This document shows positions 7,228 to 63,881 of a stretch of DNA of 64,000 nt, in pieces. The stretch lies in contig CAVQUB010000015.1 of the NCBI GenBank assembly GCA_963716725.1, positions 352,001 to 416,000 on the forward strand, in the 5' to 3' direction. The position numbers were made by a program, and so were the translations under genes. Under the pieces are notes generated by a model. The model did no database searches and was not told the origin of the DNA. It was given only the letters and a program-made list of their open reading frames with translations. The DNA comes from an uncultured delta proteobacterium. GTDB taxonomy: Bacteria; Myxococcota_A; Polyangia; Polyangiales; Polyangiaceae. Numbering within the stretch: position 1 is the first letter of the stretch; each line of letters opens with the position of its first letter.

Positions 7228-7977
7228 ATGCACATTCACCATCCCCTGTTTGGACTCCGCGGCTTCGGCGCCGCGCTTTTGGCCCTGAGTTTCGCCTTCG
7301 CCTGCGGCAGCGACGACGACGCGGGGTTCACCGACTCGGGCAACCTGCCCCAATGCAAGACCAGCGCGGATTGCGGCGGCAACGATCCCTTCTGCCAGGG
7401 CGGGCGCTGCGTGGCCTGCCAGGCGAACGCCGACTGCACCACCGCGGGCACGGTCTGTGACGGAGTCACGGGGGAGTGCAAGGCGACGTGCGCGTCGAGC
7501 GCCGAATGCGGCAACGACACCCCGCTCTGCTCGGACAAGCGCGGGGTCTGCGTGCGGTGCCAGACCAATGCGGATTGCGGCGGCGGTGGTGACGCGCTCT
7601 GCAACACCACCATCGATCGCTGTGTCGAGTGCAAGACGAGCACGGATTGCGGCGCCACCCAGCCCATTTGCGAAGTAGTTAGGGGTGAATGCCGGGAGTG
7701 CATGCTGGATGCCGACTGCCCTGCGGCGCGCCCCAAGTGCGACGACCACGAGTGCGTCTCGACGGGCTGCACGAACAACGATCAATGCGGAGGGGACCGG
7801 CCGTACTGCAACGCCGCAGCCAAGACCTGCGTCGAGTGCCTCGAAGACGCCAACTGCGCCGGTGGCGGCGATCCGGCCTGCGACAAGGCCCAGGGCCGCT
7901 GCGTCGAATGCACCAACAACGAGCACTGCGATCAGGGCAAGACCTGCGACCTGAAGGCCCTGAAGTGCAAGGGTTGA
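7228..7977 (+). CDS. Cys-rich repeat lipoprotein
   Basis: Lipobox AFAC; about 9 C-x3-DC / CVEC repeats. Confidence 0.8.
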   Translation: MHIHHPLFGLRGFGAALLALSFAFACGSDDDAGFTDSGNLPQCKTSADCGGNDPFCQGGRCVACQANADCTTAGTVCDGVTGECKATCASSAECGNDTPLCSDKRGVCVRCQTNADCGGGGDALCNTTIDRCVECKTSTDCGATQPICEVVRGECRECMLDADCPAARPKCDDHECVSTGCTNNDQCGGDRPYCNAAAKTCVECLEDANCAGGGDPACDKAQGRCVECTNNEHCDQGKTCDLKALKCKG

Positions 7978-8011
7978 GCAGACTCGGGTTGGTGTATTCT
8001 CAGCGCCAGCC

Positions 8012-8431
8012 ATGCCACCGCTGCCCGCCGTCTCACGAGCGTCGCTGACCCTCGGAGCGTTCATCATTGCGGTCGTCACGCTCTCAGCCTGCATCTCGAC
8101 CCGGCAGACGCTGACGCCGGAAGCAGCGAAGGTCCGCTACGTCGAGCAGAAGATCGAGCCGGAGTGCGAGATGATCGAGGAGATCACGGTGGGGCGAGAG
8201 TGGTTCGTGACCGACGAACGACAGCCCGCACAGAGCAAGGACGACGTCGTGGTCCGCATGCGTCGGCTCGCGGCCAAGCGTGGCGGCAACCTGGTGGTGA
8301 TCCTCGAGAACGAGCCGCCGAACTCGAAGTGCTCCGGCTACAACGGCCTCGGTCGGGTCTATCGCTGCAACGCGGAGCAACTTTCGAAGCTGAGCGGCAG
8401 CGGGGAGCCCGAAGCGCCGGCGGCTCCGTGA
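8012..8431 (+). CDS. Small lipoprotein (DUF4156/RcsF-like)
   Basis: Lipobox LSAC; LTPEAAKVR...C...AAKRGGNLVV...GRVYRC pattern. Confidence 0.6.
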   Translation: MPPLPAVSRASLTLGAFIIAVVTLSACISTRQTLTPEAAKVRYVEQKIEPECEMIEEITVGREWFVTDERQPAQSKDDVVVRMRRLAAKRGGNLVVILENEPPNSKCSGYNGLGRVYRCNAEQLSKLSGSGEPEAPAAP

Positions 8432-8533
8432 ACGGCGAACGCCGCCTCACGCTGCCCGGTTGAAATTCTGTCGTCGGCCGTGGCAGTCTGCCGGCTCCCA
8501 GAAAGGCTGGCGCCGCGCTGACGGTGCAGTCAC

Positions 8534-10464
8534 ATGCTCGAGCGTCCCACTTCAACCTCCCACCGCGTCTTGGCGGTCAACACCCTGGCGTTCACGGTCT
8601 GCTTCGCCGTCTGGATGCTCAACGGCGTGCTGGTCACGTTTCTGGCGAGCAACAAGGTCTACGACTGGGGGCCGGTGCAGGTCGGTTGGTTGATGGGCAT
8701 CCCGGTGCTCACCGGCGCGATTTTCGGCTGCCCGCCGGCATTCTCACGGACCGCTTCGGCGGCAAGCCGGTGTTCGCGGGCTTGCTCTTTTTCTGTGCCT
8801 TGCCGCTGGTCGCCTTGTCGCAGGCCAATTCCTTTTGGAGTTTCGCGCTGTGCAGCTTCGGCTTCGGCCTGTGCGGCACTGGCTTTTCCATCGGCATCGC
8901 CTTCACCTCGGTGTGGTACCCCAAGCGCAACCAGGGCACGGCCCTGGGCATCTTCGGCGCGGGCAACGCCGGCGCGGCGGGCACCACCTTGCTGGCGCCC
9001 ACGCTGCTCAAGCGGCTGACCGACGACGGCGCGAACCTCGAGGGCTGGCGGACCCTGCCGTTGCTCTACGCGGCGCTGATGGTCGCCATGGGCGTCGTGT
9101 TCTTGGCAACGGCCAAGAACCGCAAGCCGGAGGTCACGAGCAGATCCGTCGCCGAATCGCTGAGGCCCCTGCGCCAACTCCGCGTCTGGCGCTTCGGCCT
9201 CTACTACTTCCTGGTGTTCGGCTGCTTCGTAGCCTTCTCCCAGTGGCTCGTGCCGTATTTCGTGAACGTCTACCAGACCAGTTTGGTGGTCGCGGGCGTC
9301 TTTGCCGCGTTGTTCAGCTTTCCCTCGGGAGTCATTCGAGCCTTGGGCGGGTGGCTCTCGGACAAATATGGCGCTCGCATCGTCATGTACTGGGTGCTCG
9401 GGGCCTCCGTCGTGTGCAGCGCCCTGGTCATCGTGCCCAAGATGGAGATCGTGTCACCCGGTCGCGGAGTGACCGCCACCGAGGCGGGCGTGGTGACGGC
9501 GCTCGACACCGAGTCCATCACCGTCGGAAGCGTGCGCTACTCCCTGCGGCGCCGCCCGGAACAGCTCGCAGAAGGTGACGCCCAAGCCTTGATTCTCCCG
9601 ACCAAGGACGCCTGGCATCAGCCGCTGGTCGAAGTCGGACACAGGGTTCAGAAGAAGGAGCTCTTGGCCAAGGGCGTCACTCGCATCTATTTCCAGGCCA
9701 ACGTCTGGGTGTTTGCGGTGATCGTGATCGTGCTCGGAGCCATCTGGGGCATCGGTAAGGCGGCGGTCTACAAACACATCCCGGACTACTTCCCGAACGA
9801 AGTGGGCGTGGTGGGCGGCATGGTGGGCGTGATCGGCGGACTCGGCGGCTTCGTGTGCCCGATCCTCTTTGGCTACCTGCTCGAAGGCACGGGCCTGTGG
9901 ACCAGCTGCTGGATGTTCATGTTGGCCATCTCGCTCGTCTGCTTGGTCTGGATGCATCGAGTGATCGGGAAGTTGACCAAGTACCCCAAGGGCTTCGAGT
10001 CCCAGTACGCCGACGCTTCGCGCGTGCTGCCCGGCGACCTGCTGAGACCGCTGATGCGCTGGCGCGACGACTTCAGCGTGGGTGAGCCGACCATGGACGC
10101 GCAGCATCTGAGGCTGCTCGACTTGATCAACCAGCTCGACGAGTTGGTCCAGAAGGGCGGCGACCCATCCGATCTCTCGCCCGTGCTCGACGGCGTGATC
10201 GACTACACCAAGACCCACTTCAGCGCCGAGGAGGCCTACCTGGAGGAGATCCGCTTTCCCGACCTGGAGGAGCACAAGCAAGCTCACGCGCTCCTGCTGA
10301 GCCAAGTCATGGAACTGCGCGGCGACGCACTGAGCGGTGACCCTCGCGTCATGACGCGGCTGCTGCTCTTCTTGCAGACCTGGCTGCTCGGGCACATCGC
10401 CACCGTCGACAAGCAATACGCTGCGCACGCCGCCGAGACTGCGACTGAGCCGGTCAGGGCCTGA
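8534..10464 (+). CDS. narK: NarK/NasA-family nitrate/nitrite MFS transporter fused to a C-terminal hemerythrin; one frameshift near 8725
   Basis: N-terminus in frame 8534 (TLAFTVCFAVW...IPVLTGAIF) continues in frame 8524 (RLPAGILTDRFGG, GTALGIFGAGNAG, FGLYYFLVFGCFVA, IRALGGWLSDKYG); hemerythrin from about 10054. Confidence 0.85.
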
Positions 10465-54697: not shown

Positions 54698-55036
54698 ATG
54701 TCCAAGAAAGTGCCTTTGAGCAAGAAATACACGTACCGCGTGGTGTGGTCCGAGGAAGACTCCGAGTTCGTTGGACTCTGCGGCGAGTTTCCAAGTCTGA
54801 GCTGGCTCGCAGCGTCTCCCGATGCTGCACTGAAAGGGATCATGAAGATTGTGGCAGATGTCGTGGCCGAAATGGCGGCGAGCGATGAGATGCCGCCGGA
54901 ACCCATCGCCACGCGTAACTACAGCGGCGAGTTCAAGCTTCGGGTCCCGCCGCTGTTGCACCGTGCCCTCGTGATGGAGGCCGCCGAAAACAACGTCTCT
55001 CTCAACCGGCTCGTGAACGCGAAGCTAGCAACGTGA
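54698..55036 (+). CDS. hicB: HicB antitoxin
   Basis: YTYRVVWSEED...EFPSLSW...YSGEFKLRVPPLLH...SLNR (RHH). Confidence 0.88.
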   Translation: MSKKVPLSKKYTYRVVWSEEDSEFVGLCGEFPSLSWLAASPDAALKGIMKIVADVVAEMAASDEMPPEPIATRNYSGEFKLRVPPLLHRALVMEAAENNVSLNRLVNAKLAT

Positions 55037-55079
55037 CCATGCCTTGACCCTGGTCAGCGCTCGAGCTGAGCGAGCAACT

Positions 55080-55850
55080 CGAGCAGAACCACCCGAAGCC
55101 CCCGCACGCAACTCGCCATCGCAGCTCGAGCACGCGAGTTTCTCCCGACTGTCGCGTCGCACCACCACCTCAGCAGGGATGAGTTCGATCACCTCCGTCA
55201 CATCGTGGCCGATGCATTTGCGCTCGGCGCCGCACTTCGGGCAAGGCCGCTCTGTGGCAGGCACGGCGAGTGGATTGTTGATTCGACGCAGGTGCGCCGG
55301 CGGAGCGCGCCTTAGCGGCGGCTGCGTTCGCGGCTCCCGAGTCTCTTGGGTCCCCACGTCTCGCTGAGCGTGCTCATCGACACCGGCCGCGCTGCGCAGC
55401 CTGAGATTCGCCTCGTCAGGTTCCTTGTCCGTTCCGGCCGCGCTCTCTGCAGCAGTCGCGAGCGCGTCGAGAAACAACAGCAGCTGGTCACGTGAGAGCC
55501 CCTCGTTCTTCTTGCGGCGCCCGCCAATCTCGGCGAGCCGCTTTTCCACCTCGCTGTTCTGGGCGACGAGCTGTTCGAAAAGTGGACCACCTGGATTTTG
55601 CGGCCTTCAGCGAGCAACTCCTGGAGCACGTTACGCCGCCCGGAACACGCACGATCACCCCGAGTTCGCCGCTCTCCGCGTTCCCGACACGCACCGCCGC
55701 GGGCACGAGTCGCGCGAGCGCACGAACGGGCCGCCCCGGACCGCGCTTCGCCTCGGTCCCCAACCGGCGACGCCAGAAATACAGCCGCTGTGCATCGATC
55801 CCGGACACGCGCGTCTTTGCCCTCGTAGCGGCTCTTCAGCATTGGGGACA
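55080..55850 (-). mobile_element. Degenerate IS66-family remnant (tnpA-like fragment joined to truncated tnpC)
   Basis: GIDAQRLYFWRRRL (TnpA HTH); CPKCG...IGHDVTEVIELIPA...REKLACSSC (IS66 zinc finger); no tnpB or DDE core seen. Confidence 0.78.
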
Positions 55851-55942: not shown

Positions 55943-57667
55943 TCACAGCTGCGGACGCCAGGTGGCCAAGCCTTGCAATACCAAGACATCGACGTCGGAA
56001 CCGAACACGGTGTCGGCGTCCAGGGCGATGTTGAAGTGCCGCGACGGCGAGTACCAAACCGCCATGCCCACCAGGTGCTCGACAAATGCGCTGTCCGCCG
56101 CGGTGTAGCGCGTCACGGCCGGACGGTACCGCGCCGACAGGTCGAGCTTGCGATCGAGCAACTCCAGCCCCGGGCTGAGGGAGACCCCGACGTTGGTCAG
56201 CGCGGTGCTGCGCGCACCCGAGGCCCCGGCATCGACCCGCAGTGTGCCGACGATGTCGATCAGTCGCAGATGCGCGTAACCGCCGATGACGTCGGAATCC
56301 GTGCTCTGAGTGCGCGCGGCGTTCGCGCCAACGGACGCAGAAAGCTGGTCCAGCCGCACTCCCACCTCGCCACTGCCGTGCAGCGTCGCATCGCTGCCAA
56401 GACAAGCACTTGCAGCAGCCGCCGTGGGCCCGGAGACACACAACCATTCGGGCGGTAAGAAACTCGCCAGCCAATTCGAGCGCTCGGGGCGCTGCAAGCC
56501 TCCGCGCGCGGCGAACTCGAGGACGCCCGCGCGCACCGCTGCATCCGCACCCACGGAACTGAGCTCCGTAGTCTCCGCGGCCCAGGGATTGTCCGCGTCA
56601 AAGAACGACACCTCGGCGTGCGCGCCGAAGCGACCAAAGCCCGGCAGCAGGTCCAGGCTGGCGTTGACCCGACGTTCGTCGAGATTGCCCTCGAAGCGCG
56701 AAGCGTGTCCGCCGAGGATCAGCCGTGGGCGCCACTCTGCCTCGAGGTCTTCGAACGCGAACTCACCGCCGAAGCGCGCCGTGGCGGAGGGAACACCCGA
56801 GAGCGGCTCGGGGACCGCGCCACCGAAGGCGCTCACGGAGAGGCCGCCAGCCAGCGGTGCGCGCAGCTTCACGCCATCTAGGTTTCCCAGAAAGCTCGAC
56901 GCTTGGCGCAGGCGGCCGATACTTCCGAGGAACGAGCGTTCGCGCCCATAGGCCGCCTCTAGCCGCCGCACACGCAGGGCGGGGCGCGCGTCGTCCGCGC
57001 GGCGGTCCGAGAGATTGGGCGCGATCCAGGTCTGGCCGCTCACGTCGACGTCGATGGCGAAAGGAGCGGACACAAAGGGCTCGAAGTGCAACTGGCTGCG
57101 CAACTCCGCACGCCCGATCCCTGTTCCACGGTCACCGTTCGCGATGACGCCGTAGCCGTACGCGGAGAAGGTCACGCGGTTCCGACTCTCGTCTTGGATC
57201 AGACCCAGCGGCACCGGTTTGGGCGTCTGGTCGTCGGCTGGACGGCGCGCGTCCGACCACAAGCCTTGGTACGTCGCGACGCTCGGGGGCTTGGGCATGC
57301 GCTCAACTGCCGGTGCCTCCCGCCCGAGTTCGACGTTGGCCTTGCCCTTCGCACCGACGTCTAGGCTTGCGTTGCCAAGCGGCAGCACGGCGAAGGAAGC
57401 CGTCACGGCGATGACTTCGTAGTCGCTCCCACCAAATTGCACACTGTCGCCCACGTTCAGACCTTCGTCGCTTCCTGGGCTGACGTAGATTTTGCCGTCG
57501 GCCACATCCAGCACGGTGATCTTGAGAGTGACTCGCTTGCCGCTTTCGGACTTCTTGTCGACAGCCTTGTCCTTCCCATTGGCAGGCCGCTTCTTGGGCG
57601 CGGCGTCCACCGAGTTCGCCAGTGCCAGAAAGCCCAGCACGATACCAAAGCAGCGCCACGTTCTCAT
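55943..57667 (-). CDS. Probable outer-membrane beta-barrel (porin-like) protein
   Basis: Signal peptide, small N-terminal beta domain, long run of amphipathic strands (IGR, FGG motifs) ending LATWRPQL; ATGA-coupled to cytochrome. Confidence 0.62.
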   Translation of the reverse strand: MRTWRCFGIVLGFLALANSVDAAPKKRPANGKDKAVDKKSESGKRVTLKITVLDVADGKIYVSPGSDEGLNVGDSVQFGGSDYEVIAVTASFAVLPLGNASLDVGAKGKANVELGREAPAVERMPKPPSVATYQGLWSDARRPADDQTPKPVPLGLIQDESRNRVTFSAYGYGVIANGDRGTGIGRAELRSQLHFEPFVSAPFAIDVDVSGQTWIAPNLSDRRADDARPALRVRRLEAAYGRERSFLGSIGRLRQASSFLGNLDGVKLRAPLAGGLSVSAFGGAVPEPLSGVPSATARFGGEFAFEDLEAEWRPRLILGGHASRFEGNLDERRVNASLDLLPGFGRFGAHAEVSFFDADNPWAAETTELSSVGADAAVRAGVLEFAARGGLQRPERSNWLASFLPPEWLCVSGPTAAAASACLGSDATLHGSGEVGVRLDQLSASVGANAARTQSTDSDVIGGYAHLRLIDIVGTLRVDAGASGARSTALTNVGVSLSPGLELLDRKLDLSARYRPAVTRYTAADSAFVEHLVGMAVWYSPSRHFNIALDADTVFGSDVDVLVLQGLATWRPQL

Positions 57668-58623
57668 CGCGCGCGTCCCCCGCGATGGCAGTGCACGCAG
57701 CGCTCGCGCACCGGCCCCAAGCGCTGATGCTGGCGGGCGATGCGCACTGGGTTGTGGTTGTGGCAACCCGTGCAGCGCACCAAGCGCGGCGCCTCCAGCG
57801 CGACATGGCAATCGCCGCACTCGAATCCGCGGTGCTTTCCGGTCCGGATCGGAAAGGAAAGTTCATGGCTGCGCGCGGCCAACGGACTCTGACTGAGGCG
57901 GAACTGAAAGCTTGCGGGAACGAAGGCCGGCGTCCACGCGGTGGCTCGATGGCATGTGGCACACTCTTTCGGAAACGGAGGCTGCCCCGCCGCGCCGACA
58001 TGCAATGGGTGGATGTCCGTGCGGCGATAGTCCGAAACGTGACATGCGTAGCAATCCGCGGGTGCGCCGGAAAACTGTCCCTGCGCGCTGCGCTGGTGGC
58101 ACTCGCTACAATCTACGAGCGCGTGCATGCCCGCGAGCGGAAGCCGCGTTCGCCGGTGTAGTTCGATAGCGCGCACGTCTCGAAAGCTGCGTGAGGAGTG
58201 ACAGCGATCGCAGCCTTGGCCGAGGCGACGGCGGTGCGAGTCTTCGTGACAGCCCACACATTCGCGAGTGATCTTGCGATCGCCAGTGTGGCACGCCGTG
58301 CACGCGGTTTGTCGGTGGCCTCCGCTCAGCGGAAACCCAGTGACCGAGTGGTCGAAGCCGCCGCCGCTGCTGCCGCTGGGCGTCAGCCGCCAACTGCTCG
58401 GTGTGTGGCAAGTGGAGCAATCCAGGCCCTTGGTGATCGACGCGCGGTGTGGGCTTTTCGCCTTCGCCTTCGGAGCCGCTGGCCTGGGCTCCTTGTTGGC
58501 CCCCGCTGGAGCGGAGCTGCCTCTTGCCGGGGTTTTCCCGGGCTTGTCGCCCGGCGCCGCGAGGGCGATTGCGGCGGCCAAGAACGACGCCAAGACCAGC
58601 AGGGACGACGGCGATCGGGTCAT
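57664..58623 (-). CDS. Multiheme cytochrome c (10 CxxCH)
   Basis: Signal peptide; 10 CxxCH counted; FDH...FPLxGxH repeats. Confidence 0.92.
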   Translation of the reverse strand: MTRSPSSLLVLASFLAAAIALAAPGDKPGKTPARGSSAPAGANKEPRPAAPKAKAKSPHRASITKGLDCSTCHTPSSWRLTPSGSSGGGFDHSVTGFPLSGGHRQTACTACHTGDRKITRECVGCHEDSHRRRLGQGCDRCHSSRSFRDVRAIELHRRTRLPLAGMHALVDCSECHQRSAQGQFSGAPADCYACHVSDYRRTDIHPLHVGAAGQPPFPKECATCHRATAWTPAFVPASFQFRLSQSPLAARSHELSFPIRTGKHRGFECGDCHVALEAPRLVRCTGCHNHNPVRIARQHQRLGPVRERCVHCHRGGRAR

Positions 58624-60416
58624 GGTTCGGCCTCGGCGTGCGGATCGGCGTGGCAGTCCTTGCAGGCGGAGTAGCCAAGGCGGTAGCGGCGAGCGCGCTT
58701 GCCCCCGCCGAGATCACGTTCCGCGTGGCACTTGGCGCAGTCTGAGCCCGCGTGACGTCCCTCCAAAGGGAATCCAGCGAGCGCGTCGTGACGGAACGCC
58801 TTGATCTTGAACCGGCTGGTGTCGTGACACACGGCACAACCCTTGACGGGTTTGCTCAGGCGGAACTGACCGAGATGCACGTCTTGGTGGCAGCCCGAGC
58901 ATGCGCGCGGCGTGCCACGGTAGCTACCGCCCTTGCCGTGTTTGCGATCGGCGGCACTTGGCGTGTGGCAGCGCGCGCAGGGGGCGCCCGCGTGGGCTCC
59001 CGTCAACGGCCAGCTTCGATGGTCGATTTTCGGGGTATGCCAGTCCAGCGGTGAGTGGCAGGCGGAGCAGCCGTCCTTCTTCATCTCTTTGGCGAACTGG
59101 CTGCCGTGCGGATTGTCGTGGCAAGACTCGCAGCGCGCGGACGTGCCACGCCAATCGAGTCGCTGGCCGCCCTTGGGATGTTTGTCGTGACAGCTGCCAC
59201 ACGGAACGGCAGCGTGGTGCCCCTCCAAAGGGAACTTCGTCGTGGCATGCGCCGGCACGCCGAAACTCGCCGGGCGGAAACCGCTGTCCGTATGGCACGC
59301 GGCGCACTCGCCGCCGTCGCGCTTGGCAAACGCGCCGAAGTGCACATCGTTGTGGCACTCGCGGCACTTGTCGAACTTCAGCTCGCGAAAGCGTTGTTGC
59401 GCCGGCTTGGTGGTCACGTGGCAGCCTTTGCAATCGGTCTCGAGGTGTTGGCCGCGGAGCTGAAACGGCGTCTTCTCGTGGGAATCAAGCCCGATCTTCC
59501 TGGATAGGCCAAGCCAGCGAATGCTGGCGTGGCAGCGCCCGCAGCTCTTGCCAAAGTCCGCTTCGTGAATGGGTTTGTGGCAGCTGACGCAGGCACGCCC
59601 CTTGGAAGGCGCCGTGTAGATCCCGCGATCGTGACAGCTACCGCAGCCAACCCGCGCATGTCCGTTGGCCAAGCTCAGCCCGGGGTGCGCTCCGGCTTTC
59701 ATCTGGATCTGCCGCCAGTTGTTCTCGTTGTGGCAGTTGGTGCACTCCTTCGAGAACCGACCCCCATGGGGATCCTTGTGGCACGAGGTGCAGCCGCCGA
59801 AATCCAGTCCCGCATAGCGAGGCGGCGAACCGTGGCAGTTGCCACACTCCGCCTTCGCGTGCGCACCGCGCAACGGGAACCTCGACTGTGCGTGGTTGAA
59901 ACTCTTGAGATTGACCTGTTTCCAGTTCGACTCGTTGTGACAGCCGAGGCAGTTTGTGCCAAAGCGAGTCTTGTGGGGATCCTTGTGGCAGCCAGTGCAC
60001 GCGGTCGCCGCGCCGATCCAGCTGCGGCTCTTGTGGCATTGGTTACACTTGGCCTTGCCGTGCTCCCCGCGCAGGGGCCAACCAGTCTGCCCGTGGTCAA
60101 AACCACTGGGGTTGAATCGCACCATGGCGAAGCCGCGCCCACGGTGGTCGGAATGGCATTTGGCGCAGGGTCCGGAGAACGCCCGCGTGTGCATGCCTTG
60201 ACCTGTAACGTTGCCGTGGCAGCTGTTGCAGAGCCCGTTCGACGTTCCACGCCCGGACGTGTGGCAGCGTCCGCAGTTCCCATCGCCTTCCAAGTCCGCA
60301 TGTGCGGCTGCCAGGGGTCCCGGTGCCATCAACTGTGCGCGCGCTCCGCCCGTCAGGCAGACCAGCGCGACCAGCGCGACCAGCGCGCGTAGGCTACGGC
60401 GCCACAGTCGGTGCAT
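58620..60416 (-). CDS. Multiheme cytochrome c (23 CxxCH)
   Basis: Signal peptide; PGPLAAAH start; 23 CxxCH counted, mostly in tri-heme repeats. Confidence 0.93.
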   Translation of the reverse strand: MHRLWRRSLRALVALVALVCLTGGARAQLMAPGPLAAAHADLEGDGNCGRCHTSGRGTSNGLCNSCHGNVTGQGMHTRAFSGPCAKCHSDHRGRGFAMVRFNPSGFDHGQTGWPLRGEHGKAKCNQCHKSRSWIGAATACTGCHKDPHKTRFGTNCLGCHNESNWKQVNLKSFNHAQSRFPLRGAHAKAECGNCHGSPPRYAGLDFGGCTSCHKDPHGGRFSKECTNCHNENNWRQIQMKAGAHPGLSLANGHARVGCGSCHDRGIYTAPSKGRACVSCHKPIHEADFGKSCGRCHASIRWLGLSRKIGLDSHEKTPFQLRGQHLETDCKGCHVTTKPAQQRFRELKFDKCRECHNDVHFGAFAKRDGGECAACHTDSGFRPASFGVPAHATTKFPLEGHHAAVPCGSCHDKHPKGGQRLDWRGTSARCESCHDNPHGSQFAKEMKKDGCSACHSPLDWHTPKIDHRSWPLTGAHAGAPCARCHTPSAADRKHGKGGSYRGTPRACSGCHQDVHLGQFRLSKPVKGCAVCHDTSRFKIKAFRHDALAGFPLEGRHAGSDCAKCHAERDLGGGKRARRYRLGYSACKDCHADPHAEAEP

Positions 60417-61290
60417 CGGAAAAGATCCAACGATAGCCGTAGTGCCAGGCCACGGCGATGTGCACGGTGACGAGCAGAATCATGATCACGGCGGCGAGAC
60501 GATGCACCGACCGCCAACCGCGCATGACGTTGCCCGCGGCCCGCGCGCGCACCTCCCCAAATACGAGCCGAATGGCGTCACTGACGTGAGCGTGCAGCAA
60601 CTGGAACTCGGCAGCGTGCTCACGACCATGGCCCTGCAGAGTCTCTTCGATGGCACGCCGGCGTCTGAAGGCCTCCGCTCGCCACTTGGGCAGCGCAATT
60701 AGCACCGCCAACAGCGATCTCCCGGGTGTCTCGATGCGATCGATGGCGTCGAGTCGCCGCCGGATCTCATCGCCGATCCCAGGTTGGATTCCGTTGAAGG
60801 TGCGGAGGTGGATCGCCAGCCGTTCCATATCCGGGCCCGTGGTGAACGCATGAATGAAGCGCCCCAACAGCCCCGTTAGAATCACAATGGCCAACGCCCA
60901 CATGGTGAAGGACGCGATGGGACTACGAAACTGAAACGCCGAGTGGAACAGCACCAGCAGCCCGCCGATGAGACCCGTCGTCGTGTGCAGGTTGAGCCAG
61001 GCGCGCAGGGATCCCACCGGGAGGGACGGAAACCGTCGCCGCACGATGTAGAGCAAGTTGGTGAAAATCAAGGTGGTGCCCACGATGCCGTAGCCGTGGC
61101 CCACGACTTCCCCTGGGCTCAGCAAGCGGAAGGCTTCGTGGTCGACCCGTTCACCAATGCCGAGGGGGTAAAAGCCTCCACCGTTCGCCCACATCGCGCC
61201 CGCGCTGCCCCCGAGCAAGAACACCAGGATCAGCCAGGGCAGGATGCTCTGGCCCCGGACGTCGGATTCGGTTGCGGAGCCCACGGCCAA
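60394..61290 (-). CDS. Membrane protein with two H-x13-H pairs (ferric-reductase/cytochrome b-like)
   Basis: WLNLH-x13-H and WRSVH-x13-H in hydrophobic helices. Confidence 0.72.
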   Translation of the reverse strand: MAVGSATESDVRGQSILPWLILVFLLGGSAGAMWANGGGFYPLGIGERVDHEAFRLLSPGEVVGHGYGIVGTTLIFTNLLYIVRRRFPSLPVGSLRAWLNLHTTTGLIGGLLVLFHSAFQFRSPIASFTMWALAIVILTGLLGRFIHAFTTGPDMERLAIHLRTFNGIQPGIGDEIRRRLDAIDRIETPGRSLLAVLIALPKWRAEAFRRRRAIEETLQGHGREHAAEFQLLHAHVSDAIRLVFGEVRARAAGNVMRGWRSVHRLAAVIMILLVTVHIAVAWHYGYRWIFSDAPTVAP

Positions 61291-61392
61291 ATCGAGCGCA
61301 AATCCTTCGTCTTTGCAAGGGCTTCAAACGCAGGGCTCGGGCGCAGGCGGCGGCGCTTTTGCTTCGTACCCGCCTTGGCGTAGCATTCGGCG

Positions 61393-62511
61393 ATGGCGGA
61401 CGGAGGCGGCGCGTCCCGCGGAACCGGAGTGCTGATCATTGCCCTGGGAACCGCGTTCGGTGCGGGAGCCTGCGGCGACGTGCTCTCGGAACCGGGCGAG
61501 CAGCACGTTCAGGTGCGCGCTGGCGACTGCTACTCGTGCCACCAACCGGACTACGAGAACGCCGCGAACCCGCCCCATGTGAACGCCATGCCCACGGTGT
61601 GCGCCGCGTGTCATAGCCAGAGCGCCTGGGCGCCTGCGACCTTCGCGCACAGTTGGCCGATCGCGGGCGCGCACACCAAGCTCGCTTGCCAAACCTGTCA
61701 CACCGGAGCGCCGCCCAAGTATCAGGGAACGCCGACGGAATGTGTGGGCTGCCACCAACAGGACTACGATACGAGTGTCTACCCTGGCCACAACACGTTC
61801 CCGACGGCCTGCGCGACGTGTCATAGCCAAGAAGCTTGGAAGCCCGCGGCGTTCAATCACAAGTGGCCCATCCTCGGTGCGCACACCAAGGTCGCTTGCC
61901 AGAGTTGCCACACCGGCAACCCGCCGAAGTACCTTGGGACGCCGACGCTGTGTGTGGGCTGCCACCAAAAGGACTACGACTCGAGCCCGCACCCCGGGCA
62001 CAACACCTATCCCACTACGTGCGACTCGTGCCACAGTCAGTTGGGGTGGAAACCCGCATCGACCGTCGCCCACCCCTTCCCGCTGGACGGTGCGCATGCG
62101 ACGACTCCCTGCGCGAGCTGTCACGTCGGCAATCCAGCGGTGTACAAGGGCACGCCCAAGGACTGCTACAGCTGCCACACGGACGATTTCAACTCGAGTC
62201 CGTACCCGGGGCACAGCGGCTTCTCACACACTTGTAGCGGCTGCCATTCCACGACGGCATGGAAGCCCGCCACTGGGGGTTCTCATCCGGAAAACAAGTT
62301 CCCCATCAACAGTGGCAAGCACAAGAACATCAAGTGCGCCGACTGCCACGACGCCAGCCTCGGCCCCACCTCGAAGGCCAATACCGCGTGCGTCAGCAGC
62401 TGTCACACCAGCGCCGAAATGAACAACGTGCACAAAGGCGAGAACAAGTACCCCACCGGAACCAGCTCGTTGAATTTCTGTTTGGATTGCCACTCCGACG
62501 GAAGTAAGTAA
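61393..62511 (+). CDS. Multiheme cytochrome c lipoprotein (13 CxxCH + 1 CxxxCH)
   Basis: Lipobox AGAC; three near-identical ~68-aa tri-heme repeats. Confidence 0.92.
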   Translation: MADGGGASRGTGVLIIALGTAFGAGACGDVLSEPGEQHVQVRAGDCYSCHQPDYENAANPPHVNAMPTVCAACHSQSAWAPATFAHSWPIAGAHTKLACQTCHTGAPPKYQGTPTECVGCHQQDYDTSVYPGHNTFPTACATCHSQEAWKPAAFNHKWPILGAHTKVACQSCHTGNPPKYLGTPTLCVGCHQKDYDSSPHPGHNTYPTTCDSCHSQLGWKPASTVAHPFPLDGAHATTPCASCHVGNPAVYKGTPKDCYSCHTDDFNSSPYPGHSGFSHTCSGCHSTTAWKPATGGSHPENKFPINSGKHKNIKCADCHDASLGPTSKANTACVSSCHTSAEMNNVHKGENKYPTGTSSLNFCLDCHSDGSK

Positions 62512-62555
62512 GCCGGCGCCTGCGCGGGCGCGTCACCCGCTGAAGGAGTTCTCGA

Positions 62556-63881
62556 TTGTCTTCCACGCTCGTATTGGGGGGCCTGGTCGCCATCGCAGTG
62601 TTGCTCTGGCTGCTCTGGGAGTGGCGGGATTCCGTGCGCGAAAAGGCGGTGCGCGCAGAAGCCGCGGACGTGGCGGGGCTGGGCGAAGTCGTGCCCACGT
62701 CTCTGCACCCGGTAATCGACCCGAATGTGTGCATGGGCTCCGGCGCTTGCGCTGCGATCTGTCCGGAGCATGGTCCTTTGGGTCTGATTGGCAACCGCGC
62801 GCTTCTCGTCAACCCACTGGGCTGCGTGGGGCACGGCGCCTGCGCAGCGGCCTGCCCGGTCAGCGCCATTCGTTTGGTATTTGGCACCAAGACCCGAGGC
62901 GTGGAGCTCCCAGAGGTCGGCCCAACATTTGAAACCAACCAACCCGGTATCTACATTGTCGGCGAGCTTGGCGGCATGGGCCTGATCCGCAATGCCGTCT
63001 CGCAAGGTTCCCGGGCCGCGCAGAGCATCGCAAGCGGCAGCGACACGGGTGTCCGCCGGGGTGTAGGGGGTGCCCTCGATGTGTTGATCGTTGGTGCAGG
63101 ACCCGCAGGGATCTCAGCGACCCTCGGCGCCATGCAGGCCAAGCTCAACACGGTGCTGGTGGATCGCGAGGCCCTGGGCGGAACCATCACGCACTACCCA
63201 CGTGCGAAAGTGGTGATGACGGGCCCCCTGGACTTTCCACTCTTCGGCCGGGTCGAGAAGAAGACCATGTCCAAGGAGGCGTTGGTCGAGCTCTGGGAAC
63301 AGATCATGGCCAAGTGCCAGCTGCCCTTGGCCACGGGGCATTTGGTGGAAAAGATCGAAGGGCAGCAAAGTGGCATGTGGCGGGTGCAGTCAGCCACGCA
63401 AAGCTGGGAAGCCGCCAACGTCGTGCTGGCGCTGGGCGTGCGCGGTTCGCCCCGCAAACTCGGCGTGCCTGGCGAAGACCTGGCCAAAGTCGCGTATCGG
63501 CTCTTGGAACCCGAACCCTTCGAAGCCAAACACGTCTTGGTCGTAGGCGGAGGCAACAGCGCCGTCGAGACGGCGATTTCACTGGCGGACTTTGGACGCT
63601 GCGCGTCTGTCGCGATCAGCTACCGCCGCGATGCATTTGCACGCTGCCGGGGCGACAATCGTCGGCGCATCGAAGCGGCCATCCAGCAGGGCAGCGTGCG
63701 CGCGCTGATGCCCTCGAACCTCACGGCTATCGAAGAGGGCCGCGTACTATGGAAGGGCCAGGACGAGGTGGTCCAGACGCTGCAAAACGACGCGGTCATC
63801 GCACAGGTCGGCGGCACGGCGCCCGCGGATCTCCTCAAGACCTTTGGCATCAACTTGGTCACGAAGTACGGCGAACGTTAG
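62556..63881 (+). CDS. Membrane-anchored 4Fe-4S ferredoxin + FAD/NAD(P)H thioredoxin-reductase-like oxidoreductase
   Basis: N-terminal TM; CMGSGACAAICP and CVGHGACAAACP; IVGAGPAG; VVGGGNSAVE...SYRR. Confidence 0.88.
   Translation: MSSTLVLGGLVAIAVLLWLLWEWRDSVREKAVRAEAADVAGLGEVVPTSLHPVIDPNVCMGSGACAAICPEHGPLGLIGNRALLVNPLGCVGHGACAAACPVSAIRLVFGTKTRGVELPEVGPTFETNQPGIYIVGELGGMGLIRNAVSQGSRAAQSIASGSDTGVRRGVGGALDVLIVGAGPAGISATLGAMQAKLNTVLVDREALGGTITHYPRAKVVMTGPLDFPLFGRVEKKTMSKEALVELWEQIMAKCQLPLATGHLVEKIEGQQSGMWRVQSATQSWEAANVVLALGVRGSPRKLGVPGEDLAKVAYRLLEPEPFEAKHVLVVGGGNSAVETAISLADFGRCASVAISYRRDAFARCRGDNRRRIEAAIQQGSVRALMPSNLTAIEEGRVLWKGQDEVVQTLQNDAVIAQVGGTAPADLLKTFGINLVTKYGER

Follow-up and report, generated by a model that had tools for sequence, protein, structure and literature searches.

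Organization of the Cluster

We analyzed a stretch of 64,000 nucleotides from contig CAVQUB010000015.1 of an uncultured delta proteobacterium of the Polyangiaceae (GCA_963716725.1), the whole of which is referred to as the window. Our subject is a group of six genes at positions 55943-63881, here termed A to F (Table 1), which we consider as a candidate conduit for electrons across the cell envelope. The genes form two divergent units, D-C-B-A being encoded on the minus and E-F on the plus strand, and their span and divergent layout agree with those given in an earlier note on this DNA. Genes D and C overlap by 23 nucleotides (nt), and the C/B and B/A pairs overlap by 4 nt each, which argues for D-C-B-A being a tightly coupled operon. 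The spacer between D and E was aligned with those of two relatives at roughly chosen coordinates; this alignment was uninformative, and no regulatory motif was established in it.

The number of CxxCH motifs is 23 in C, 10 in B, and 13 in E, with none in A, D, and F. Gene E contains in addition one CxxxCH at residue 333, which aligned to a plain CxxCH in all four homologues compared. Because this motif represents a conserved fourteenth site with a one-residue insertion, the cluster has 47 c-haem sites in total. From the same motifs the earlier note had counted 46-47 c-haems, a number that matches ours.

Table 1. Positions of the six genes and the divergent region in the window, with observed and predicted features (aa, amino acids).
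Feature	Position	Strand	Description
A	55943-57667	(-)	574 aa; signal peptide; outer-membrane barrel predicted; no haem motif
B	57664-58623	(-)	319 aa; secreted decahaem c-type cytochrome; presumed insert of barrel A
C	58620-60416	(-)	598 aa; secreted 23-haem cytochrome; c7-type repeats; presumed periplasm-spanning wire
D	60394-61290	(-)	298 aa; five-helix inner-membrane protein; presumed di-haem b cytochrome
D-E intergenic	61291-61392		102-nt divergent region; presumed shared promoter region
E	61393-62511	(+)	372 aa; lipoprotein cytochrome; 14 haem sites (13 CxxCH + 1 CxxxCH)
F	62556-63881	(+)	441 aa; membrane-anchored cytoplasmic Fe-S flavoprotein

Conservation of the Cluster

Related loci were collected by scanning one genome per species with an alignment of nine closer sequences. 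The resulting 80 loci comprise 62 labelled as Myxococcota and 18 from Gemmatimonadota, Chlorobiota/Ignavibacteriales, and Saprospiraceae, with enough flanking DNA present in 32 Myxococcota loci and 10 of the others. Among the 32 well-flanked Myxococcota loci, F, A, and a cytochrome with at least 8 haems within 3 kb were each found in 31. The full set, i.e., F, A, and at least two cytochromes with at least 8 haems, was present in 29 of the 32, so the oxidoreductase and the membrane protein do co-occur with the cytochromes. Outside the Myxococcota, F was found alongside D in all 10 well-flanked loci. Exceptions were locus L039, which is without F, and locus L083, which has a partial D and no cytochrome.

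Synteny was conserved as well. All six were together in 6 of 10 loci from relatives, and two more of these ten were cut by contig ends. In locus L016 the six genes are located on one strand in the order E-F-D-C-B-A. D is followed by C in nearly all loci, and the adjacency of B and A is near-invariable in those Myxococcota loci whose sequence extends to both genes. A further set of 20 Myxococcota loci had D beside a cytochrome with at least 7 haems in every case, accompanied by F in 17 and by a match to the A profile in 11.

The D family was found in 12 of 41 genomes from close relatives and, at E ≤ 1e-10, in 121 of 401 sampled Myxococcota genomes (109 of the 339 high-quality ones). A library of 1.84 billion proteins gave 4101 cluster representatives at E ≤ 0.001. 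The module of D and F is also present in Gemmatimonadota, Ignavibacteria-like, and Bacteroidota genomes. In metagenome-assembled genomes of Saprospiraceae, D is directly followed by F at L085:9923-12129 and at L088:10001-12200; locus L085 has one open reading frame (ORF) with 54 CxxCH located beyond 3 kb, and locus L088 holds no multihaem cytochrome. At least half of the words of the stretch were found in 15 DNA runs, which are labelled as wastewater, biofilter, sediment, and groundwater; none of the sequencing runs listed as containing it was an RNA run.

The Oxidoreductase F

In Pfam, F consists of an N-terminal hydrophobic helix followed by basic residues, a Fer4_10 domain (51-101), and a Pyr_redox_3 domain (177-433). 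Alignment of 12 sequences from four phyla revealed six invariant Cys residues (C59, C65, C69, C90, C96, and C100). Both iron-sulphur (Fe-S) motifs read C-x2-[S or H]-x2-C-x3-C-P, the second Cys of CxxCxxCxxxCP being replaced by Ser62 in one and by His93 in the other. In the 12 sequences His93 is invariant, Ser62 is nearly so, and an S-Y-R motif is conserved. A canonical 2x[4Fe-4S] ferredoxin, which has eight Cys, was rejected since only six are invariant, and judged from these ligands the clusters would be atypical, either 3Fe-4S or Ser/His-ligated 4Fe-4S. F had previously been described as a membrane-anchored oxidoreductase with Fe-S, flavin adenine dinucleotide (FAD), and NAD(P)H sites. The anchor and the ferredoxin-like and flavoprotein domains bear this out, whereas the Fe-S motifs deviate from the canonical form.

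There is no conserved Cys outside the ferredoxin domain in the 12 sequences, and the CxxC of thioredoxin reductase aligned to residues other than Cys. A function of F as a disulfide reductase was ruled out because its flavoprotein part retains no conserved Cys. Relative to the equivalog cut-offs F scored 150.9 bits vs 339.9 for YpdA (TIGR04018) and 71.4 vs 343.45 for TRX_reduct. Among solved structures F is closest to YpdA, thioredoxin reductases, and ferredoxin-NADP reductases of the thioredoxin reductase (TrxR) type (3lzw, 5ygq, and 3ab1), and two dinucleotide-binding motifs were found with invariant G180/G182/G185 and G331-G333. We predict that F works as a TrxR-type ferredoxin-NAD(P)+ reductase that carries its ferredoxin domain in the same chain. 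The residues 'yrrd' of F aligned with 'hrrd' of thioredoxin reductase, a motif that presumably binds the 2'-phosphate of NADPH. This alignment hints at NADPH as the donor of F, and the electron donor is probably NADPH.

The Membrane Protein D

D contains two H-x13-H pairs, H102/H116 and H263/H277, that were invariant in 11 of 11 aligned sequences, down to an identity of 24%. A total of 270 proteins from three database searches were aligned to the profile, and of the 254 that span the four columns, 253 have all four His residues. The two pairs pointed out by the earlier note are therefore a property of the family and not of this protein only.

The model of D (predicted local distance difference test, pLDDT, 81.7) has membrane helices at residues 17-37, 62-86, 95-118, 124-149, and at the end of 233-283, and a helical insert of about 100 residues. 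The His pairs are located on helices 95-118 and 233-283. Arg-rich loops are found after helix 2 and inside the insert; by the positive-inside rule both parts would be in the cytoplasm and D would be N-in/C-out. In this orientation H102 and H263 would be close to the cytoplasmic side of the membrane and H116 and H277 close to its periplasmic side. The His residues in the model thus have the geometry of a transmembrane di-haem wire, presumably with haem 1 bound by H102 and H263 and haem 2 by H116 and H277.

Matches of the D family in Pfam were weak and below threshold. Ten of 11 members had a match to DUF4405 at E ≤ 0.05 (best E 1.4e-7), seven had one to Ni_hydr_CYTB, and four had one to Ferric_reduct, the match to the latter being at E 0.024 (15.1 bits vs a cut-off of 28). 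Some database members of the family bear a precomputed PF14358 (DUF4405) and some PF01292. By sequence, D is a remote relative of DUF4405 and cytochrome b561 proteins. Binding of haem b has been demonstrated for one purified DUF4405 protein, as described in a portion of PMC11334425. The four conserved His residues, the DUF4405/b561 matches, and this precedent led us to read D as a cytochrome b, which would bind haem b.

In databases, members of the family go by the name 'hypothetical protein' or, mistakenly, 'PreT'. One source applies 'dihydropyrimidine dehydrogenase (NAD+) subunit PreT' to stand-alone D-like proteins with a length of about 280-320 residues (P0028, P0030, P0039, P0071, P0076, and P0103). 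This name was probably carried over from fused F-D proteins and is ill-suited to a haem-binding membrane protein.

The Joint Module of F and D

Neighbourhood, fusion, topology, and co-folding agree in uniting F and D in a single module. Their genes are adjacent in four phyla, and natural F-D fused proteins of 739-760 aa comprise a full F with its N-terminal helix and a full D; protein P0123 has an identity of 44% with F across 437 residues and of 31% with D across 249. Among the best representatives of the D family 17 of 150 are at least 700 aa long. Twelve representatives were tested against Pfam: Fer4 and/or Pyr_redox_3 were found in seven, and the other five, of 455-545 residues, matched no family. 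Fusions were also found in nine of the 20 further Myxococcota loci, six in the order D-F and three in the order F-D. Past its last His-bearing helix, a D-F fusion continues with a short linker and another hydrophobic helix, after which come an Arg/Lys run and the Fe-S domain. Because both orders of fusion are compatible only with D being N-in/C-out and the helix of F being N-out/C-in, we assign these topologies to the two proteins.

Structure prediction of the pair, which the earlier note had suggested as a check, agrees with this. Co-folding of F and D gave a median score of 0.66 vs 0.00 for the best control. The score is a measure of model confidence, and a value of 0.66 was attained in 116 of 157 solved complexes and in 2 of 215 mismatched pairs. 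The agreement of contacts between runs was at least 91%, and the partner pLDDT was at least 76. In the co-fold the helix of F packs on the last helix of D, and residues 55-68 and 95-103 of F, which hold the Fe-S motifs, lie against residues 85-99, 147-152, and 249-253 of D beside H102/H263, with the stretch around C96-P101 touching D beside H102. The predicted interface would have the Fe-S domain where the His-bearing helices of D end on the cytoplasmic side.

Longer frames with a D domain were observed as well. At L021:7145-10186 (genome G013) a 1013-residue open frame combines Fe-S domains, the flavoprotein, an extra Cys-rich stretch, and a D-like domain with four His residues, and adjoins a multihaem cytochrome ORF of 765 residues. 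About 215 residues before the Fe-S part are without a Pfam match and are possibly untranslated. At L117:8319-10640 and L118:9929-11932 the D domain is C-terminal in frames of 773 and 667 residues, respectively, next to a gene for a 28- or 30-haem cytochrome. The N-terminal parts of these two frames did not match the F profile. They may represent a different cytoplasmic partner domain or merely a long open frame in GC-rich DNA.

The Multihaem Cytochromes B, C, and E

According to Pfam and NCBIfam, B, C, and E are built of c7/c3-type repeats, with Cytochrome_C7 matches of 47.3 bits for B and of 105.4 bits, in five stretches, for C. All three were far under the curated cut-offs of MtrA/DmsE, OmcA/MtrC, HmcA, and TmcA, with scores of 32.8 and 34.4 bits vs 192.2 for TIGR03508 and 21.7 vs 209.3 for TIGR03507. 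The sole solved relative of B found by sequence is a nonahaem cytochrome (E 0.0045), and a sequence search for solved relatives of C gave none. The total number of His residues is 52 in C, 23 in B, and 30 in E, which would be enough for bis-His ligation of every haem.

The number of haems was most constant for B, with exactly 10 CxxCH in 41 of 45 homologous ORFs. Homologues of C had 23 CxxCH in 27 and 20 CxxCH in 21 of 55 ORFs, and homologues of E ranged from 11 to 54 haems. A lipobox-like Cys after a hydrophobic stretch was found in seven of eight E homologues. By sequence, E may be located at the outer membrane as a partner of A/B or in the periplasm. With the 12-haem GSU1996 as a yardstick for length, c7 units with 23 haems in a chain could extend across the periplasm.

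Right after its signal peptide, at residues of about 28-59 (window 60240-60335), C contains a segment S-P-G-x-L-x3-H-x2-L-E-G followed by the first CxxCH. This segment of the large cytochrome is kept in Myxococcota, Gemmatimonadota, and Chlorobiota (L084:3494-5071; L097:10832-12328; L021:4936-7233), and it is a candidate docking element for D. In a genome of the same genus (G003) the 23-haem homologue at L013:7894-9785 was found broken into the overlapping ORFs 8430-9785 and 7894-9504, which is a frameshift or an assembly error.

The Predicted Barrel A

The AlphaFold model of A (pLDDT 68.7) has 21 strands at residues 164-570 and a small N-terminal beta domain at 45-113. One low-confidence segment possibly conceals a further strand, giving about 22 strands in all. 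A Foldseek search gave 298 matches at E ≤ 0.001, and all matches listed were outer-membrane barrels with a probability of 1.00 (OccK2, OmpU, FimD, and MOMP). A signal peptide was present in all six homologues examined. No family in Pfam or NCBIfam, MtrB_PioB included, was matched. A is predicted to be an outer-membrane barrel of about 22 strands with an N-terminal periplasmic domain, so the suggestion that it is a probable beta-barrel, made before from the letters and translations, gained from the model and the Foldseek matches.

Neighbouring Genes

The barrel gene A is directly adjoined by a HicB antitoxin-like ORF (54698-55036, plus strand; Pfam HicB E 1.9e-13) and an ORF on the minus strand (55025-55549) that contains the zinc-finger domain of IS66 transposases (E 2e-11). 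The genes that flank the cluster in the window were conserved in none of the 80 related loci, and the conserved unit therefore consists of the six genes. That the cluster is a piece of a larger conserved island was ruled out for the same reason. Given the HicB/IS66-like neighbours and the unshared flanks, the cluster may have moved as one unit.

A Proposed Path for Electrons

We consider, with a probability of roughly 0.6, that the six genes encode one envelope-spanning electron conduit, with a two-component NOX-like entry in the inner membrane and electrons moving outward. This reading builds on computed features of the cluster, namely the genes and their motifs, the conservation of the His and Cys ligands, the synteny, the F-D fusions in both orders, the F-D interface, and the barrel fold of A. 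F would be located on the cytoplasmic face, anchored via its N-terminal helix, and would oxidize NAD(P)H (probably NADPH) at FAD, with the electrons then passing through the two atypical Fe-S clusters. From there they would be transferred to the cytoplasmic-side b haem of D (H102/H263), to its periplasmic-side b haem (H116/H277), and into C as a 23-haem periplasmic wire. The path would continue from C to the decahaem B inside barrel A, to the lipoprotein cytochrome E at the outer membrane, and then to an extracellular acceptor. Gene order, the segment of C after the signal peptide, and the analogy to porin-cytochrome conduits (Pcc) suggest this order of D, C, B in A, and E.

The donor, the outward direction, and the bypass of the quinone pool are what we infer. 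Outward electrons run with the membrane potential and the proton is left inside as in NOX, so the step would be driven but not energy-conserving. Outward flow would suit redox balancing, iron/manganese reduction, or other extracellular chemistry better than respiration, and inward flow to NAD(P)+ would be doubly uphill. A Pfam search of the six cluster proteins for quinol-dehydrogenase families gave no match to NapC/NirT or NrfD, ImcH and CbcL not being searched for, in line with the absence of a NapC/NrfD-type quinol module reported earlier. Since no NapC/NirT or NrfD gene is present in the cluster and D is coupled to C, independence of quinone is plausible from the gene content.

Several observations weigh against the outward conduit. 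The Fe-S motifs of F are each short of one Cys, which by sequence allows more than one type and potential of the clusters. The Pfam matches of D are below curated cut-offs (20.3 bits vs 26.7 for the D of the window and DUF4405), and a Foldseek search of D against the PDB found no solved relative at E ≤ 0.001. Generic helical bundles made up most of the matches in a wide VIA fold search of D. A single di-haem membrane protein was listed, E. coli CybB (5oc0_A; root-mean-square deviation 3.2, 137 residues aligned), at a Z score of 8.6 that is within the chance range for helical bundles. The barrel model is of middling confidence (pLDDT 68.7), and B is only presumed to be inside A. The A profile had no match at E ≤ 1e-3 in the 18 loci outside Myxococcota, and the Chlorobiota ORF L084:6111-7715 had a probability of 6.3 when compared with the A alignment in hhalign. 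With a relaxed search, same-strand ORFs inside the cluster came out on top for 11 of the 18, with E values from 7e-5 to 0.07 as computed within this small 18-locus set (next match 0.48), and we take these syntenic A-like ORFs as a lead only. Two Saprospiraceae loci have D then F with no cytochrome of at least 8 haems within 3 kb. These exceptions indicate that the F-D module is not tied to cytochromes everywhere, and in Saprospiraceae it may serve other periplasmic acceptors. The members are known from sequence alone, and all close relatives are metagenome-assembled genomes. Finally, the sole NapC/NirT (PF03264) match in the genome, at G000:C5:666240-666731 on the plus strand of another contig (56.1 bits), could also feed periplasmic cytochromes, and D may have a quinone site by virtue of its remote quinone-reactive relatives.

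Alternative Explanations

Members of the cytochrome b561 and Ni_hydr_CYTB families are quinone-reactive, and D could be a quinone-reactive di-haem b anchor like cytochrome b561, the b subunits of hydrogenase and formate dehydrogenase, or di-haem succinate:quinone reductases. F-D would then act as an NAD(P)H:quinone oxidoreductase, and the cytochromes would be supplied from quinol via D or another enzyme, or else D would be the quinol dehydrogenase for the cytochromes. The weak Ni_hydr_CYTB matches in 7 of 11 D members and the PF01292 assignments point this way, as do the NapC/NirT gene elsewhere in the genome and CybB, a quinone-reducing protein, as the best membrane-protein fold match of D. 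The same holds for complex II, whose plan of flavoprotein, Fe-S protein, and di-haem-b anchor is matched here. The translational coupling of D to the 23-haem C and the order D then C in nearly all loci point to a direct protein acceptor instead; moreover, no quinone-site motif was identified in D, and its family matches are all below the curated cut-offs. We find such a coupling to quinone unlikely. Less probable still is an inward flow, in which external or periplasmic donors (Fe(II), a cathode, or a partner cell) would deliver electrons via E/B/A, C, and D to NAD(P)+ or another acceptor at F. Porin-cytochrome conduits can run either way, Tmc/Hmc have the same plan of a multihaem c in the periplasm, a cytochrome b in the membrane, and an Fe-S protein in the cytoplasm, and B and E have weak sub-threshold matches to HmcA and TmcA. 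Electrons moving inward would, however, have to overcome the membrane potential and go uphill from bis-His c haems to NAD(P)+, with no energy-coupling subunit in the cluster, and the His counts suit haems that are all bis-His and typically of low potential. On balance this direction appears highly improbable.

The path could also end in the periplasm, with the cytochromes reducing a soluble periplasmic substrate or storing electrons, and with A as an ordinary porin or export component. The insertion of B into A being presumed only, the about 22 strands of A compared to the 26 of the MtrB barrel, and the Saprospiraceae loci with D and F but without a cytochrome of at least 8 haems within 3 kb are all compatible with this. 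It accounts less well for the overlap of the A start with the B stop and the near-invariable adjacency of the two genes, for the exact number of 10 haems in 41 of 45 B homologues, and for the conserved lipoprotein cytochrome E alongside. Two-gene clusters of a porin and a periplasmic cytochrome are in addition an accepted form of Pcc, according to the part of PMC4245776 that deals with them. We regard a periplasmic end point as improbable.

Returning to the outward conduit, a more far-reaching version of it is possible, and we put it forward tentatively. The cluster would be a hard-wired, quinone-bypassing 'NOX-to-nanowire' of 2 b and 47 c haems, in which NADPH and membrane potential are spent on extracellular reduction, C forms a static bridge without a diffusible carrier, and the purpose is extracellular chemistry and not respiration. 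Because the module also occurs with little or no cytochrome nearby in Saprospiraceae, F-D would here be a general and so far unrecognized family of NAD(P)H dehydrogenases that span the membrane and supply several acceptors in the periplasm. If this were true, the conduit could be used for freeing iron or manganese from minerals, and reactive oxygen or Fenton chemistry would be possible for predation and polymer attack, in a setting of Polyangia from wastewater, biofilters, groundwater, and sediment.

Significance

The overall reading of the earlier note is supported, as the tests of the barrel, of co-occurrence, and of His conservation all failed to refute it. To our knowledge, the characterized routes of extracellular electron transfer in diderms are all described as starting at the quinol pool (CymA, ImcH, CbcL, and the like), and the surveys of this process that we know of count only quinol-pool input modules. 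We found no published description of a flavoprotein and cytochrome b input module for multihaem conduits, in a search with most subscription journals and supplements outside its scope. Term look-ups in PMC11475568 and bioRxiv 10.64898/2026.05.27.727921 gave nothing relevant, and NADH, NADPH, and FAD do not occur in the survey PMC6295460.

The cluster would be an unrecognized bacterial way of sending electrons out of the cell. If so, a conserved input of NAD(P)H-flavoprotein and di-haem b alters the reading of such gene clusters, the energy yield of metal reduction has to be reckoned anew, and other organisms would be scored as electroactive. The single-chain F-D fusions, at about 740 residues, lend themselves to expression, spectroscopy, and structural studies, which makes direct testing possible.

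Comparison With Known Systems

The entry proposed here resembles NOX, FRE, and SpNOX, and also the Fre + MsrQ pair. In these systems electrons pass from pyridine nucleotide via flavin and two b haems, for which a pair of helices provides two His pairs, to an acceptor across the membrane, and both fused (NOX) and split (Fre + MsrQ) forms exist, as with F-D (on these systems see PMC11031084, PMC5676040, and PMC12525009). In contrast to NOX/FRE, F is thioredoxin-reductase-like with a two-cluster ferredoxin domain and has no FNR-type FAD_binding_8/NAD_binding_6, and D has five predicted helices and a Ferric_reduct match only at E 0.024. The acceptor would also differ, being a multihaem cytochrome chain and not O2, an Fe(III) chelate, or MsrP. 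The earlier description of a split NOX/FRD-like module holds as an analogy only, since D is at best remotely related to the ferric-reductase domain (the Ferric_reduct E of 0.024 being below the cut-off) and the dehydrogenase is not FNR-type.

D also resembles the DUF4405 cytochromes of flavinylation-associated electron transfer, which have four central conserved His residues, one member having been purified with haem b, and are proposed to transfer electrons across the cytoplasmic membrane. These proteins have six helices and are linked to ApbE and flavinylated extracytosolic proteins (both points from the portion of PMC11334425 cited above). D differs from them by its cytoplasmic insert of about 100 residues and by its link to an NAD(P)H flavoprotein and c-type cytochromes.

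Tmc and Hmc of sulfate reducers combine a periplasmic multihaem c, a membrane cytochrome b, and a cytoplasmic Fe-S protein. The cluster shares with them, and with Rnf-MmcA of Methanosarcina (see PMC11024163), an outer multihaem c, a membrane redox subunit, and a cytoplasmic Fe-S/flavin subunit, which would connect cytoplasmic carriers to multihaem cytochromes without a requirement for quinone. The subunits of Tmc, Hmc, and Rnf belong to other families (HdrD-like CCG proteins, NarI-like b, and Rnf) and include no outer-membrane barrel, and flow in Tmc/Hmc is inward. In Geobacter sulfurreducens an Fe(III) reductase activity that is bound to the membrane, depends on NADH, and involves cytochromes was reportedly described by Magnuson et al. 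in 2000. It likewise couples oxidation of pyridine nucleotide to Fe(III) reduction and is known as an activity; genes resembling F and D are not known to have been assigned to it.

The outer part of the cluster would work like a porin-cytochrome conduit and belongs to none of the curated families. As in the Geobacter Pcc (OmaB-OmbB-OmcB) and Shewanella MtrCAB, a gene for a haem-free barrel is coupled to a gene for a periplasmic multihaem cytochrome, and a lipoprotein multihaem cytochrome and further multihaem cytochromes are present in the cluster. Clusters of porin and cytochrome genes consist of two genes in Anaeromyxobacter and of three in Ignavibacterium album, as stated in part of PMC4245776. 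A/B were likened to these clusters by description only, not by sequence. Neither 'oxidoreductase' nor 'NADH' occurs in the text of PMC4245776, its supplementary gene tables being outside that scope. A differs from the known conduits in having no Pfam/NCBIfam family, and B, C, and E in scoring under the cut-offs of theirs. The main difference lies in the input, which in those conduits comes from the quinol pool via CymA, ImcH, or CbcL and here would come from a cytoplasmic flavoprotein and a cytochrome b.

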